Assembly: GCA_037308085.1 (NCBI GenBank)
Contig: CP147779.1
Coordinates: 64,001 to 128,000 of the forward strand
Origin: Promethearchaeati archaeon SRVP18_Atabeyarchaeia-1
GTDB taxonomy: Archaea; Asgardarchaeota; Atabeyarchaeia; Atabeyarchaeales; Atabeyarchaeaceae
Direction: 5' to 3'
DNA: 64,000 nucleotides
In this document: piece by piece, positions 28,276 to 41,669 of the stretch
Layout: every line of letters starts with the position of its first letter
How positions within the stretch are numbered: the first letter of the stretch is position 1
The notes under the pieces: model-generated
Database searches by the model: none
Told to the model about the DNA's origin: nothing
The model's input: the letters and a program-made list of their open reading frames with translations, nothing else
Made by a program: the position numbers and the translations under genes

Positions 28276-28379
28276 GGATGAGCCCAGATAAGGAATCATG
28301 AGAAGTTGCGCCAAGCGCAGATTCTGGCCCTTATACCGGTTATTCGGCGGTCTCATTGGAATATTCTGAATTTGAGCAA

Positions 28380-28456
28380 ATGCTGAGATACAGCGAATTC
28401 GAGAATTTCGTAACAAGATTCCCATGAAAGGCGCCAAACAAGGAGCCCGATTGCAG
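28380..28456 (+). repeat. decayed copy of the 3' end of the HTH-repeat nuclease gene
   Basis: Encodes LRYSEFENFVTRFP-stop versus the nuclease's LKYAEFERFVSTCL-stop; 34/48 nt identical with TGA in the same position. Confidence 0.75.
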
Positions 28457-34807: not shown

Positions 34808-34975
34808 GGCGACCGGGCAGTCACTAAGTTTTCTGACTGCAAACTTCATTTAACAATCTTGAATCTAATGTGTGTCCTGCCGGCGGGAAGTTGGAGATCA
34901 TTCTACCTTGTTCGGATTAGGAAATCCATTGAGTCCTGGTGAACTACCGATAATAGGCTTCGAGAGTCCTTGATT

Positions 34976-35476
34976 ATGGAAAAATATGACAAACAAGATC
35001 AGAGATTGATGGCAACTTGGGCTGCAGACTGTGCCGAAAGAGTACTTCCATTTTTTGAGAAGGCATATCCGAAGGATGATCGGCCCCGCAGAGCTATCGA
35101 GGCATGCAGAACGTGGGTTCGGACAGGCATGTTTAAGATGGCTGATATACGCGGAGCCTCTCTTGCAGCTCATGCCGCCGCCCGCGAAGCGAAAGAGAAT
35201 AGCGCAGCTTGTTTTGCTGCGCATGCCGCAGGTCAAGCGGTGGCAACTGCGCATGTTCCCGAACACGCCTTCGGCGCTGCTTATTATGCTCTTAAAGCCG
35301 TTGCGGCAGCTGACCCTGATAATGCCGAGGTTAAGATTGCCAAAGAACGACATTGGCAATCACGGCGTCCTCCAAAAAGCCTAAGGCAAGAAGTCCTAAA
35401 CAAGATAATAATCCAAAAACATGGCGACAGAATTCTCATCAAGATACGAAAAGGCAAGGATACTGAGGTACGATGA
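34976..35476 (+). CDS. Imm5-like putative immunity protein
   Basis: WAADCAERVLPFFE..P.DDRPRRAIEA...AAHAAARE...AAGQAVATAHVPEHAFGAAYYALKA. Confidence 0.85.
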   Translation: MEKYDKQDQRLMATWAADCAERVLPFFEKAYPKDDRPRRAIEACRTWVRTGMFKMADIRGASLAAHAAAREAKENSAACFAAHAAGQAVATAHVPEHAFGAAYYALKAVAAADPDNAEVKIAKERHWQSRRPPKSLRQEVLNKIIIQKHGDRILIKIRKGKDTEVR

Positions 35477-35565
35477 GCTCGAGAAATTCGTAACCATATC
35501 TTTAGAGAAGTTGCCTGACAAGGAAGACTTTCTCCCCACAGGAAAAAGCCGATACCAGGCTGCTG
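35451..35565 (+). repeat. decayed copy of the nuclease 3' end and its downstream sequence
   Basis: KARILRYDELEKFVTISL versus KVKILKYAEFERFVSTCL (43/68 nt); CACAG(G)AAAA.GCC.AT.C..GG is shared beyond the stop. Confidence 0.75.
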
Positions 35566-35851: not shown

Positions 35852-36348
35852 TCAGCTATCCGGGAGACGACCGCGTCTCACCTTCCTTGTCAGTTTAGGC
35901 AGTGACTGCAATTCACTGCCGATTACGTGTACTCCGCAAGCCGGGCACGTCCCTTTGACATGCACCCACTCCAGGAAGTCATCCCGATGAGCAGCACCCC
36001 CGCAACTCGGGCAAGACGCAATCGAGTCGCCCCTATACAACTTCTTCCTGCATACAATGCACACACCAACCCCTCCCGCCCTTCATCTAGGGGCGTAGTG
36101 ACATCCTCGACTGCTTCCCCATCCTCAAATACCTTCGCCTCCCCCATCCTCACCTGCTCATTGATGAACCCAAGCAGGAACCCCACCCCAGAAAACAAAC
36201 CCAAACCACCAACGAGGAAAGCGAACACCTCCCCCCCGAATTTGCCCCTCACAACGGTAGGTGGGTAGCACACGACGACGAACAACCCGAACAGAACCAG
36301 CATGACTCCTGCAAAAAGAGGGAACAATCGAAGCGACCCATCACTCAC
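35852..36348 (-). pseudogene. frameshifted protein with two TM helices and a RING-like domain
   Basis: The TM ORF (start 36348) and RING-like ORF (CIVC..CPSC..H..EW..CPAC) join if one GT is removed from TTGGTGTGTGC at about 36060-36069. Confidence 0.6.
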
Positions 36349-37548: not shown

Positions 37549-39315
37549 ATGTCCCAAACTCCACACACCAACACGCCACACAGCCACCCACAACCGCCAA
37601 CAAACATGCAACTGCAGATGCAGGAAGATCCAGACGAAACCATAAGGAATACTAGGAGTAAGAAAAGAGGAAGGAACAAGAAAGCAAGGGGCAAACCAAG
37701 AAAAGAGCTACCAATAGCAGGAAGTGAGCTATTCGCGAAATGGAAGGCTGGGAGATCAGCAGGAGACCTCTCAAAGGAATATGGCGTAAGCCCCGGAACA
37801 ATCCGGAACCGGTTAAAGGAATGCGACAAGGAATCCTATGCTAGCATAGCTAGGAGCAGGAAACCTCCCAGAAGCAATGGGCGAAGAAGAGAACTGCCAA
37901 TACCTAACTCAGAACTCTACGAACAATGGAAGAATGGGGAATCAGCCGAAACCTTGGCAAGAAAGTACAGGGCCAGCCGCCAAACCATTTCGAGGAGACT
38001 AAGAGAGTACAATGAACAGGAATACGGCGAAATAGCCAAGAGAAAGATAGCCACTTCAATCGCTGAGCGGAGGAAGAATATTCCAGTAGCACCAGCTAAA
38101 CTCATGGATAGATGGAAGAGTGGTGAATCAGCAGGCAAACTCGCGCACCAATTCAATGTTAGCCGCTCAACCATCACCAAAATACTGGAGAAGTACGGTG
38201 ACAATGACTACCGGCGAATGGCTAAGGAGAGAATGACCAGAGGAAAAGCGAAAGAAATACCGATATCTGAAGCCTCCGACCGGTGGAAGAAAGGCGAAAG
38301 GATCAAGGACCTCGCAAAGAGGTACGGGGTTAGCTTCGGAGCAGCTCGGAGGAAACTAATGGAGAACGACGAAAATGCGTACAGGGAGATAGCAAGGATC
38401 AACAGGGCAAGAAGAGGGAAGGAGAAACTTTCAGTATCAGACGTCAAACTGTTCCAGTTGTGGAAGAACGGCAAATCGACAAGAGCCCTAGCAAAGAAGT
38501 TAGGAGTAAGCCGTCAGACGATTTCGAGAAGACTAAAGGAGTATAATGCACAGGAATACAGTGAAGTGGCCAAGAAAAAAATCGCCGCGAAAATCTCTGA
38601 AATTGCGAAAGAGAAAAAGATCTCGATACCTACTGATGAGTTGTCGAAGCTGTGGGAGAACGGGAAGTCAACAGCGACTCTGGCAAGAGAGAACAAAGTA
38701 AGTCGACAAACCATATCAAGGATACTAATCAAGCGGAACAGAGCGGAGTATCAAACAATAGCCAAGCACAGAATAATCACTGCAAGGACGAAAGAACTAC
38801 TGATACCAATGCCTGAACTTTTCGACCGATGGGAAAACGGAGAATCACCAGAAAAACTCGAAAAAGAATGCGGAATAAGCTACAGACAAATCCTGAACAA
38901 ACTGAGAGCATATGACAAAGACAGGTACAAGAAGAACGCCGAAAGAAGAGGACTAGGTTCCATCAGAGCAAAGAATTGTGGAGTCGACAGCCTATTCGAA
39001 CTGAACGTCGGAAGAATTCTGGAAAGACACGGCATCTTATCCAAGAGAACTACGCTGAAGTTCGGCAAACATAATTACCGCCCAGATTTCCTACTACTTG
39101 AACGCAACACAATAATCGAAGCAATGGGGCTTTCCTTCGACTGGTATTGGAGGCGCAACAAACAAAAGACAAGAGACTATCTCCACCACAAGTACAAAGT
39201 AGTCGCTGTAGTGCCCACCGGGCAAGTATACTGGAAAGCAAAGGGATATCTCAGCAGGAAAGTAAAGATACTCAAGTACGCGGAATTCGAGAGATTCGTG
39301 TCGACATGCCTATGA
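37549..39315 (+). CDS. seven tandem HTH repeats fused to a C-terminal Vsr/DUF559-like PD-(D/E)XK nuclease domain
   Basis: About 60-aa repeat consensus IP..EL...W..G.S...LA....VSR.TI...L...Y..IA x7; C-terminal SLFE...YRPDFLL...IIEAMG. Confidence 0.8.
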   Translation: MSQTPHTNTPHSHPQPPTNMQLQMQEDPDETIRNTRSKKRGRNKKARGKPRKELPIAGSELFAKWKAGRSAGDLSKEYGVSPGTIRNRLKECDKESYASIARSRKPPRSNGRRRELPIPNSELYEQWKNGESAETLARKYRASRQTISRRLREYNEQEYGEIAKRKIATSIAERRKNIPVAPAKLMDRWKSGESAGKLAHQFNVSRSTITKILEKYGDNDYRRMAKERMTRGKAKEIPISEASDRWKKGERIKDLAKRYGVSFGAARRKLMENDENAYREIARINRARRGKEKLSVSDVKLFQLWKNGKSTRALAKKLGVSRQTISRRLKEYNAQEYSEVAKKKIAAKISEIAKEKKISIPTDELSKLWENGKSTATLARENKVSRQTISRILIKRNRAEYQTIAKHRIITARTKELLIPMPELFDRWENGESPEKLEKECGISYRQILNKLRAYDKDRYKKNAERRGLGSIRAKNCGVDSLFELNVGRILERHGILSKRTTLKFGKHNYRPDFLLLERNTIIEAMGLSFDWYWRRNKQKTRDYLHHKYKVVAVVPTGQVYWKAKGYLSRKVKILKYAEFERFVSTCL

Positions 39316-39464
39316 AAGTTCCAACAGAAACACGCCTTTGCTCACAGAAAATGCCTATGCAGGGAGCAGTTTGCCCTAGAAACCTGTCTCGTCTTCAACT
39401 TCTGAATAGACACCTCCACAAGGAAGAGTGGAGGAGGATCGTCCTTCCGCCAACGACTTCCAAC

Positions 39465-41669
39465 TTACTCCTTCTCATAGTATTCCTCAGCAGTAGGTGG
39501 CCGCGGGTCCAGTCCCCTACGCTTCCTGATCTGGCCAACTATGTCAACCTGCATGCTCTCAGGCACGGGCTGCCAGTGGCTGAATTGTGAGGCCCAAAAA
39601 GCTCTGCCCTCCGTCGCTGATCGCAGTTCCTCTGCCAGCCCGAAACTCTCCGCTACAGGCAGGTTGGCTTTGACGATCATCATCTCTTCTTCGGTTGGGA
39701 TATCTATAACGCGACCGCGCCGCCTCTGAACGATAGAGATGACGTTACTAACAAAATCTGACGGCACCTTACACTCAAACGTCATAATCGGCTCCAGGAG
39801 CTTGGGATCAGACAGGAGGAAACAACACCAAATCGGTCTCCAAGTCATTGGCAATATTTGTGCAGGTCCCCTGTGCACAGGGTCTTCGTGCAACTCTAGG
39901 TCTGTGATGTTTACTTTGAGTCCGTAGGCGTGTTCTTTGGTTAGGACGCTGTCGTCTACGGCGTCTCTGAAGCCTGCTTTGACTTGTTCTATGACTTCGT
40001 CTACGTATTGTCTTCCTTTGACTTTGTTGACTAGGATGTTGGTGTCTTCTACTGCTACTACGTTGCGGCTGTCTTCGGTTGGCCAGTGGTACTGGTTTTT
40101 GAGTATTTGGTGGCGTTCGTCTTTAGATTGCATGTCGGTTAGTTTTTCTTCTTTTATTGCTTGTATGATTTCTTCTGGTAGTTTTTCGAGTGTTACCCAG
40201 CATCTGTTGTGCTTGTTTGGTGATTTGCCGAGTATGGGTCTTCCTTCGTAGTTTTTGGTTATGGTTTCTCTGTAGATGACTATGGGTTTGCTGGTTTTGA
40301 CTTTTAGTCCTGCTTCTTGCATGCGGTAGGCTGTGACTTCGAGGTGTAGTTCGCCCATTCCGCTGAGGAGGTATTCTCCTGATTCCTTGTTTATGATGAA
40401 TCGGAGGTTGGGGTCTTCGAGTGTTAGTTTATGGATTACTTTCTCGAATTTTGGTAGGTCTTTGACGTCCACGGGTTCGACTGCTACTGTGACGACTGGG
40501 TCTGAGACGTATCGTAGGCCTTCGAAGGGTTGGGTTTCTTGGCCTTGTTCCGCGATTGTTTCGCCTACTCGGATGCCTTGGATGCCGGCGATGGCGGCTA
40601 TGTTTCCTGCTGGGATTTTGTCGACTATGACTCTGTCTGCTGCCATGGACATGTAGACTTGCTGTATTGTTCCGTCTCCGTGGTAGGTGACGAGCCTGAT
40701 TGGTTTTCCTTTTTCGACGGTGCCGCTGAAGACTCTTCCGATGGCTATGACGCCGCGTTGTGGGTCTACTTCGATTGTGGATACGCACATGAGGAGTGGG
40801 CCGTTGGGGTCGACGGCTGAGACTGATTTGCCGAGTTCGCTGTTTGGGTCGCCTGGCCAGATTACGGGGGCTCTGTAGGATTGGGCTTCGACTGGGTTTG
40901 GTAGGTGTTGGATGAACATGTCTAGGACGGTTTCGTATAGGGGTGCGTGCTTGGATAGTTCTTCGAGGTTTCCGCCTTCTTGGTGGGCGGCGAGTATTTC
41001 ATTGAAGGTTACTCCTCTTGCCTGCATGTGGGGGTAGTTTGTTCCCCACTTGTGGAGTGCTGCGCCGAAGGCGACTCTTCCGTCTTCGACTGATACTTGC
41101 CAGTCTTTCTTGTGCTCTGCGGGTGCGTATTTCTCGATGAGTCCGTTTGCTTTCTTTATGATTTTGGCGAACTTTTCCTGGATGGATGTGGAGGTTAGCC
41201 TGAGTTCCTTTATTAGTCGGTCGACTTTGTTTATGAAGAGGAGTGGCTTTACTCGTTCTCTTAGTGCCTGCATTAGGACGGTTTCGGTTTGGGTCATGGG
41301 GCCTTCTACTGCGTCGACTACGACGAGGGCTCCGTCGACTGCTCTGAGGGAGCGTGTGACTGCTCCTGAGAAGTCGATGTGTCCTGGTGTGTCTATGAGG
41401 TTGACTAGGTATTCGACGCCCTTGTAGGTGTGGGCGAGGGATACGTTGCTTGCGAATACGGTCATTTGCCGCTTCTGTTCGAGTTCCCATGAGTCCAGGA
41501 AGAGCTTTTTGCCGGCTGTCTCCTCGCTGATTATTCCGGCTGCGGCGAGTAGGCTGTCGGATAGGGTGGTCTTGCCGTGGTCTACGTGGGCTATGATGCT
41601 TGTGTTTCTGATCCTCTGTCTCTCATTCATCAGTTTCACTATTTCGTCCACTTGCTTGTATCTTCCCAA
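39465..41669 (-). CDS. translation elongation factor EF-2 family protein, probably the divergent paralog aEF-2p
   Basis: AHVDHGKT, DTPGH, NKVD, GMGELHLE, KSPNKHN, HEDPVHRGPAQ; G2 is RQMT rather than RGIT; no rpS12, rpS7 or EF-1a neighbours. Confidence 0.9.
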   Translation of the reverse strand: MGRYKQVDEIVKLMNERQRIRNTSIIAHVDHGKTTLSDSLLAAAGIISEETAGKKLFLDSWELEQKRQMTVFASNVSLAHTYKGVEYLVNLIDTPGHIDFSGAVTRSLRAVDGALVVVDAVEGPMTQTETVLMQALRERVKPLLFINKVDRLIKELRLTSTSIQEKFAKIIKKANGLIEKYAPAEHKKDWQVSVEDGRVAFGAALHKWGTNYPHMQARGVTFNEILAAHQEGGNLEELSKHAPLYETVLDMFIQHLPNPVEAQSYRAPVIWPGDPNSELGKSVSAVDPNGPLLMCVSTIEVDPQRGVIAIGRVFSGTVEKGKPIRLVTYHGDGTIQQVYMSMAADRVIVDKIPAGNIAAIAGIQGIRVGETIAEQGQETQPFEGLRYVSDPVVTVAVEPVDVKDLPKFEKVIHKLTLEDPNLRFIINKESGEYLLSGMGELHLEVTAYRMQEAGLKVKTSKPIVIYRETITKNYEGRPILGKSPNKHNRCWVTLEKLPEEIIQAIKEEKLTDMQSKDERHQILKNQYHWPTEDSRNVVAVEDTNILVNKVKGRQYVDEVIEQVKAGFRDAVDDSVLTKEHAYGLKVNITDLELHEDPVHRGPAQILPMTWRPIWCCFLLSDPKLLEPIMTFECKVPSDFVSNVISIVQRRRGRVIDIPTEEEMMIVKANLPVAESFGLAEELRSATEGRAFWASQFSHWQPVPESMQVDIVGQIRKRRGLDPRPPTAEEYYEKE

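Follow-up and report, generated by a model that had tools for sequence, protein, structure and literature searches.

A 588-aa open reading frame (ORF) on the forward strand of the DNA analysed here, a 64,000-nucleotide stretch of the chromosome of the Asgard archaeon SRVP18_Atabeyarchaeia-1 (contig CP147779.1; this whole stretch is "the window", and positions without a prefix refer to it), encodes a protein, P0001, in which seven helix-turn-helix (HTH) modules precede a C-terminal domain of the PD-(D/E)xK nuclease fold. In our opinion the chances are about even that P0001 is a modular, probably active DNA endonuclease that acts on a long target site and has a selfish or homing-like life history. 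The ORF (37549-39315) is intact, with zero internal stops; the version proposed by the gene caller, P0002, begins at M24 (nucleotide 37618) and comprises 565 aa. The union of a modular HTH array with a nuclease had been suggested by an earlier note made from the sequence alone, and this architecture is now supported by matches of the array to HTH families and by a structural model of the C-terminal domain, which exhibits the PD-(D/E)xK fold.

According to the mechanism that we envisage, the HTH array would lie along ~70-85 bp of DNA, at 10-12 bp per module, in analogy to Cbp2 and Pax, where two HTH domains and a basic linker read ~20-25 bp (PMC3597662); by the same measure, an array of four modules would cover roughly 40-50 bp. 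The array would deliver the nuclease, which adjoins a conserved module of type D, to a site at one end of this stretch, with the D module positioning the nuclease and the outer modules adding affinity and specificity. The gene itself would be a free-standing nuclease gene of the selfish or homing type, which passes through a cycle of invasion, fixation and decay, rather than a housekeeping gene.

The combination of N-terminal HTH modules with a nuclease of the PD-(D/E)xK fold is of an already known kind, exemplified by I-Bth0305I, and repeated HTH/NUMOD modules are likewise known from homing endonucleases. What is new is the presence in such a role of a T7-endonuclease-I-like module of the PD-EXX-K type, the length of the array together with its natural recombination, and the Asgard host. 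Should P0001 prove to be active, the short list of homing-type nucleases would gain a new type, both in catalysis and in architecture, with a T7-endonuclease-I-like domain guided by an unusually long HTH array, and with an origin in Asgard archaea, about whose mobile elements hardly anything is known; a paper on the mobile elements of Atabeyarchaeia (PMC11529989) does not describe this protein. In addition, the 3+4 mosaic of the array and the range of 0-7 modules, both described below, suggest that nature lengthens and recombines such arrays, which makes them a candidate test case for the long-site specificity of multi-HTH proteins.

The helix-turn-helix array

The array was delimited with a repeat hidden Markov model (HMM), which finds seven units of ~58 aa within residues 53-473 (37705-38967; Table 1). 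They are anchored by conserved Trp residues at positions 65, 127, 189, 246, 305, 369 and 428, with periods of 57-64 aa. The earlier note had placed seven repeats of ~60 aa at 37705-38960, quoted a recognition-helix string for each of them, and described basic helices that join them. The HMM finds the repeats in the same place and all seven strings are present; the basic character of the junctions is borne out by the composition of the array (24% K/R), in which the final 16 residues of each repeat contain 3-6 K/R versus 1-2 D/E, and by the long helices of the AlphaFold2 model. This model, calculated for residues 232-588 from an alignment of 20 family members, depicts each repeat as helix 1 - turn - helix 2 - turn - recognition helix, followed by a linker helix of up to 34 residues. 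Its mean predicted local distance difference test score (pLDDT) is 88 and its predicted template modelling score (pTM) is only 0.41, hence the placement of the modules relative to each other is undefined.

Pfam HTH families match P0001 with E-values of 1e-17 to 4e-23, and HTH_28 (4e-23), HTH_7 (7e-22) and HTH_23 (2e-21) each match 3-5 stretches of the protein. The NCBIfam matches are all below threshold, including that to Cbp1 (NF040595; 54.3 bits with a cutoff of 140), and a search of the PDB sequences with the HTH array alone returned zero matches. The weak NCBIfam match and a weak Foldseek match relate P0001 to Cbp1/Cbp2 (PDB 2lvs), the CRISPR-repeat binders of Crenarchaeota, which are also archaeal, possess two or three imperfect homeodomain-like HTH repeats with basic linkers, and read ~25 bp of DNA (PMC3597662). 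However, Cbp1/Cbp2 lack a nuclease domain and are present in just one conserved copy, and P0001, being below the Cbp1 cutoff, is not a member of that family.

The earlier note had further envisaged a possibly re-programmable enzyme, similar to zinc-finger nucleases (ZFNs) or transcription activator-like effector nucleases (TALENs), and pointed to variation in repeat number and to hypervariable helix positions as features to look for among homologs. The former is found, with 0-7 HTH modules in different family members, and the latter is not. Across 49 repeats, the entropy of the recognition-helix positions (1.4-3.1 bits) does not exceed that of other exposed positions and none of them stands out; the positions that do not vary (a Gly, a Leu and a Tyr) belong to the scaffold. 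In the orthologs, the recognition helices follow the position in the array: they are SPGTIRNR-like in A, SRQTI-x-RR in B, SRxTITR or SRQTISR in C, and SYRQILxK in D. As the recognition helices are conserved by position rather than hypervariable, the alignments do not support a TALE-like code, even if the modules shuffle, and P0001 is no ready-made programmable scaffold. TALENs and ZFNs (FokI fusions) share with P0001 the concept of tandem DNA-reading modules coupled to a separate nuclease. On the other hand, TALE and zinc-finger arrays consist of near-identical repeats with 1-2 specificity residues and a simple code, whereas the repeats of P0001 are ordinary diverged HTH units in which no hypervariable position stands out, the nearest repeat within the same protein being 34-55% identical. 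A TRF analysis of the whole genome of this archaeon found no tandem DNA array that would be suited as a periodic target.

The five closest homologs (51-64% identity in the best local alignment) contain four modules each, one of them being N-terminally cut off. Repeats 1-3 of P0001 are best matched by repeats 1-3 of the metagenomic ortholog P0004, and repeats 4-7 by repeats 1-4 of P0005. These repeat-by-repeat matches point to a 3+4 fusion: judged by them, the seven-module array combines three modules from one four-module type with an entire four-module protein belonging to another.

The nuclease domain and its predicted active site

The C-terminal domain of ~110 aa was modelled by AlphaFold2 with a pLDDT of 88.5 and a pTM of 0.80, as a compact monomer with an alpha-beta-beta-beta-beta-alpha-beta core, in which the elements follow the order known from restriction-endonuclease-like proteins. 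A profile made from an alignment of the C-terminal domains of 27 relatives (A1; members 26-70% identical to P0001) matches T7 endonuclease I (PDB 2pfj) with an E-value of 1.8e-8, whereby the S-x-x-E of helix 1, the PDF and the E-x-x-G are aligned. These three motifs align to E20, D55 and E65 of T7 endonuclease I. The profile also matches Bax1 (E-values 2e-5 and 1.6e-4) and, marginally, I-Bth0305I (0.04). The Pfam family Phage_endo_I (PF05367) is matched weakly by 17 of the 27 members (best E-value 6.9e-4), and P0001 taken alone gives no Pfam match in this domain; PHROGs yields only weak matches annotated as "endonuclease".

Comparison of the model with known structures leads to the same superfamily. 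Foldseek places T7 endonuclease I and Bax1 first, with weak E-values, and lists PspGI and Can2 among the top matches. The root-mean-square deviation of the model from the T7 chains is 19-22 Å, which fits a non-swapped model compared to domain-swapped crystal chains. In VIA-align, a structure search independent of Foldseek, the eight best matches (Z 8.2-8.9) are all proteins with the PD-(D/E)xK fold. The catalytic domain of I-Bth0305I (Z 8.9; 86 aligned positions, 2.6 Å), VC1899 (Z 8.9; 119, 3.5 Å) and Can2 (Z 8.5; 120, 3.7 Å) score highest among the proteins considered here, and Bax1 (Z 8.1; 114, 3.9 Å) and Vsr (Z 7.8; 104, 3.4 Å) follow. These scores are essentially tied, so that the superfamily is settled and a unique nearest neighbour is not. 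In the profile comparison, the domain groups with the T7-endonuclease-I/Bax1 type. The description "Vsr-like" given in the earlier note thus stands for the fold, to which the scores of I-Bth0305I and Vsr attest, and falls for the sequence, which is nearest to T7 endonuclease I and Bax1 and lacks the His.

The earlier note knew of no characterised example with this HTH array. A precedent is provided by I-Bth0305I (PDB 3r3p), in which two NUMOD/HTH motifs at the N-terminus precede a Vsr-like nuclease at the C-terminus; it dimerizes via its nuclease domains and contacts ~60 bp of DNA with most of the specificity near the cut (PMC3239194). The order of parts, i.e. tandem HTH motifs at the N-terminus and a small nuclease of the PD-(D/E)xK fold at the C-terminus, is the same in both proteins. 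However, I-Bth0305I has two HTH motifs as compared to seven in P0001 and four in its typical relatives, its catalytic set includes a His (EDxHD, PMC6083498) where P0001 has E/D/E and a Lys on a helix, and it is encoded by an intron in a phage recA gene, whereas the gene for P0001 is free-standing in an archaeal chromosome. T7 endonuclease I (Phage_endo_I; PDB 2pfj and 1m0d), the best match at the level of sequence profiles, shares the S-x-x-E, PDF and E-x-x-G motifs, but it works as a stand-alone protein, a domain-swapped dimer, in the resolution of junctions (PMC3424549), and it has no sequence-reading array, whereas in the P0001 family up to seven HTH modules are joined to the domain.

Seven columns are invariant in A1: S481, E484, D513, E524, G527, Y533 and K540. 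The metal-binding triad, composed of E484 (first core helix), D513 (within PDF, strand 2) and E524 (strand 3), aligns with the motifs of T7 endonuclease I. It belongs to the E...PDF...IE-x-x-G pattern that the earlier note had read in this region and that we find as E484, P512-D513-F514 and I523-E524-A-M-G527. The note had also cautioned that the His of Vsr-type sites was not evident, and indeed there is none among the invariant or nearly invariant columns of A1. The invariant K540 lies on the helix that follows strand 3. Just this arrangement is known from Pa4535, with the motif "PD-EXX-K", where the Lys has moved to the adjacent second core helix; a survey of the superfamily regards it as a variant of the active site in which the chemistry is retained (PMC3424549). 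The order D513...E524-x-x...K540 is the same as in the Pa4535-type proteins (PDB 1y0k), a family that is not related and whose function is unknown; K540 is equated with their Lys solely by its place in the sequence. We infer that K540 stands in for the lysine missing from the canonical ExK motif, as in the PD-EXX-K variant. Because E484, D513, E524 and K540 are invariant down to 26% identity, a dead domain is disfavoured, and on the strength of this conservation we lean towards a catalytically active one.

Proposed life history and competing explanations

The family is rare. An exhaustive search of 1.84 billion proteins retrieved relatives in the form of 37 cluster representatives, and strong genomic matches to the domain are confined, among 400 genomes of the phylum, to three genomes of the same taxonomic family, including Ca. 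Atabeyarchaeum deiterrae. The weaker matches in other genomes of the phylum belong to the same nuclease clade and have other N-termini, none of them with an HTH array, and a search of genome contigs for related loci found no close relative.

Within its own genome (2.8 Mb, one contig), P0001 is the only protein with both a complete nuclease domain and the HTH array. One paralog has four modules and a nuclease domain that ends early (3'-truncated), another has four modules and an in-frame TAA inside the nuclease domain, and a fragment begins at "PDF" and is preceded by stops; the genome also encodes a 254-aa protein in which this domain follows an N-terminus of another kind. Recoding of stop codons was considered for the copies interrupted by TAA or TAG and is unnecessary, as the neighbouring genes read normally under table 11. 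The complete sister genome contains only fragments of the P0001 type, namely a tail relic that adjoins EF-2 (L033:8953-9029) and a further fragment (C1:101813-101989), and the place of the nuclease gene, adjacent to the 3' end of EF-2, is taken there by unrelated ORFs (712 and 407 aa). In a genome of the same genus there is only an ORF of 192 aa, which corresponds to the last half of the domain with 62% identity. The metagenomic ortholog P0004 is intact and found at the same locus as P0001, with the same EF-2 and HypF neighbours, and three other orthologs are located among unrelated small genes, two of them originating from a single sample.

Two relics in the window lie upstream of the intact P0001 gene and correspond to the last ~25-40 codons of family genes (Table 1). 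They share their setting with the tail relic of the sister genome: all three lie at junctions of convergent genes, each behind an unrelated gene on its own strand, and their starts agree within about 3-13 codons. These starts may reflect a preferred recombination point, the fading of detectable similarity, or the retention of a T-rich stretch that acts as terminator for the convergent gene. In the gene for P0001 itself, the DNA similarity to orthologs continues past the TGA, so that the extreme tail is truncated already and the loss of the last 12 or more codons is derived. A sliding-identity comparison with the syntenic ortholog showed no abrupt change near the end of the gene that would indicate recombination, with identities of ~65-75% in the nuclease gene and ~80-95% in EF-2.

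The pattern of presence, absence and decay that characterizes the invasion-decay cycle of homing endonucleases is found in this family. The family is rare, restricted to one lineage and present in several copies, its contexts vary and its members often decay, all of which fits a selfish or homing cycle better than a housekeeping role. Going further, it is possible, while short of probable, that the family is a class of homing or selfish endonucleases of archaea that had gone unrecognised, with the T7-endonuclease-I-like PD-EXX-K module as its catalytic part. Specificity would then be rebuilt by shuffling of whole HTH modules between paralogs, of which the 3+4 fusion would be an instance, and invasions would overwrite the resident gene and leave its last ~25-40 codons, from which the three relic tails in two genomes would result.

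Several observations weigh against a selfish endonuclease. The canonical ExK lysine is absent from every member of the family, with M, A, T, G or F in its place (M526 in P0001). In T7 endonuclease I this lysine is K67, and the equivalent K67A mutant is inactive; in the profile alignment, ETAG stands at this site, with Ala in the ExK position, in the chain 2pfj, which its depositors describe as the T7 Endo I resolvase bound to a Holliday junction. Residues 465-588 of P0001 alone give zero matches to Pfam and to the PDB sequences, and the protein lacks the C-terminal tail of its orthologs. Moreover, the GC content of the gene resembles that of its surroundings, and its flanks were found to contain no intron, intein, terminal inverted repeats or target duplications. 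The sole inverted pair around the gene, of 19 nt, is probably due to chance, the direct DNA repeats of the region are just the coding repeats, and a BLASTN comparison of the flanks with the archaeon's own genome revealed no repeated element ends. Finally, the position of P0004 beside EF-2 also fits a vertically inherited cellular gene. Apart from adjacency, no link was found to the EF-2 alleles, which the earlier note had named as substrates for cleavage.

The lack of the ExK lysine in all members would also fit a sequence-specific DNA-binding protein, i.e. a regulator or a Cbp1-like chromatin organiser, whose nuclease-like domain has ceased to cut and serves only for the binding of DNA or of DNA structures, or for oligomerisation. 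Such a protein could well carry HTH modules resembling those of Cbp1/Cbp2, which bind DNA repeats without cutting (PMC3597662), and could be retained at one chromosomal position, as is the case for the ortholog P0004. We nonetheless regard this explanation as unlikely, for inactivity in PD-(D/E)xK domains usually goes along with loss of the acidic residues, whereas E, D, E and the helix Lys are invariant in the 27 relatives. It is also odd for a regulator that most copies in the genome are decayed, and DNA repeat arrays that could be its targets were not found.

Less probable still is a host defence nuclease, similar to restriction enzymes and directed against long or repeated motifs on invading DNA, with a fast turnover driven by an arms race in a variable island. 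Rapid gene turnover, diverse paralogs and a variable neighbourhood, which contains an Imm5-like gene of the immunity type and unknown secreted proteins, agree with this idea, but PADLOC matches generic HTH models only and recognizes no system, and no methyltransferase, sensor or partner gene was found to be conserved beside the family members. A structure-specific resolvase, comparable to T7 endonuclease I or Bax1, which would be tethered by the HTH array to particular loci and aid in recombination or in integration and excision of mobile DNA instead of cleaving an ordinary duplex site, appears to us improbable. It is true that the T7 junction resolvase and Bax1 are the best sequence relatives, and that the tail relics at three gene junctions hint at repeated recombination near the 3' end of the gene. 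However, the boundaries of these relics agree only within the limits stated above and similarity may simply fade upstream, the model is a compact monomer rather than a swapped dimer of the T7 type, and no integrase or other recombination gene was seen beside the P0001 gene. A role as a transposase or a TnsA-like protein was rejected, its support being limited to HTH-level matches to IS630, IS21 and TnsB models, with no element ends.

Mapped features, distant relatives and neighbouring genes

Table 1. Positions in the window of the P0001 gene, its parts and the related relics
Feature	Residues	Position	Strand	Remarks
Whole ORF	588 aa	37549..39315	+	alternative start at 37618 gives 565 aa
N-terminal segment		37549..37704	+	low-complexity (His/Pro/Thr/Gln), then strongly basic; no family match
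HTH repeat 1, type A	53-110	37705..37878	+	SPGTIRNR; closest to P0004 repeat 1 (68%)
HTH repeat 2, type B	115-172	37891..38064	+	SRQTISRR; closest to P0004 repeat 2 (74%)
HTH repeat 3, type C	177-234	38077..38250	+	SRSTITKI; closest to P0004 repeat 3 (48%)
HTH repeat 4, type A'	234-291	38248..38421	+	SFGAARRK; closest to P0005 repeat 1 (57%); opens the second, four-module block
HTH repeat 5, type B	293-350	38425..38598	+	SRQTISRR; closest to P0005 repeat 2 (71%); strongest Pfam HTH matches
HTH repeat 6, type C'	357-414	38617..38790	+	SRQTISRI; closest to P0005 repeat 3 (59%)
HTH repeat 7, type D	416-473	38794..38967	+	SYRQILNK; nuclease-proximal module in every close ortholog compared (55-67%)
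PD-(D/E)xK nuclease domain, T7-endonuclease-I-like clade		38980..39312	+	S481 (38989), E484 (38998), D513 (39085), E524 (39118), G527, Y533, K540 (39166)
P0001 stop TGA and downstream similarity		39313..39345	+	TGA at the Lys codon of orthologs; DNA similarity runs on for ~30 nt, with a 2-nt gap
Relic, last ~30-40 codons of a family gene		35421..35540	+	overlaps the 3' end of the Imm5-like gene in another frame; tblastn E-values 4e-6 to 1e-5
Weaker relic of a family gene tail		28377..28445	+	LRYSEFENFV...KAPNK, with a stop; ~100 nt after a DUF6125 gene

The first 60 residues of the 588-aa protein, which largely coincide with the N-terminal segment of Table 1, gave zero matches in Pfam.

The weaker matches in the phylum include a Bax1-like type and one marked by a hydrophobic N-terminal stretch and a Cys motif at the C-terminus. 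The latter is seen in small, uncharacterised proteins from other Asgard genomes (L016-L028), in which a hydrophobic stretch at the N-terminus is combined with a "DFYL...EYWG...K" domain of the same Lys-less clade, and several of which end in a Cys-x-x-Cys motif. The 254-aa protein from the genome of P0001 (G000:C1:449619-450380) belongs to the same clade (YIPDF...IIEVSG) and has a different conserved N-terminal region; its close homologs occur in two other Asgard families (L014 and L015). A distant match, the metagenomic protein P0008 (839 aa), carries tandem HTH repeats before and after a central nuclease-like domain with the motif "YPD...EYDGEHWH", which weakly matches MTES_1575 and DUF559. 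P0008 appears to be an independent fusion, and its architecture suggests that long HTH arrays and PD-(D/E)xK nucleases have come together on more than one occasion.

Downstream of P0001, the EF-2 gene (39465-41669, reverse strand) is 87% identical to its counterpart in Ca. Atabeyarchaeum deiterrae (CP147780). Its own relatives from Atabeyarchaeia are 87-89% identical, and the next-best matches are EF-2 sequences from Bathyarchaeia, with 72-76% identity. The variable stretch upstream of the nuclease gene contains a putative Imm5-like immunity protein of 168 aa (34970-35476, forward strand; PF21805, E-value 1.6e-43), near which no cognate toxin is evident. The variable neighbourhood also holds secreted proteins of unknown kind, and between the Imm5-like and the nuclease genes there is a gene for a 70-aa prokaryotic RING-finger protein (Prok-RING_1/zf-RING_2; 35852-36064, reverse strand).

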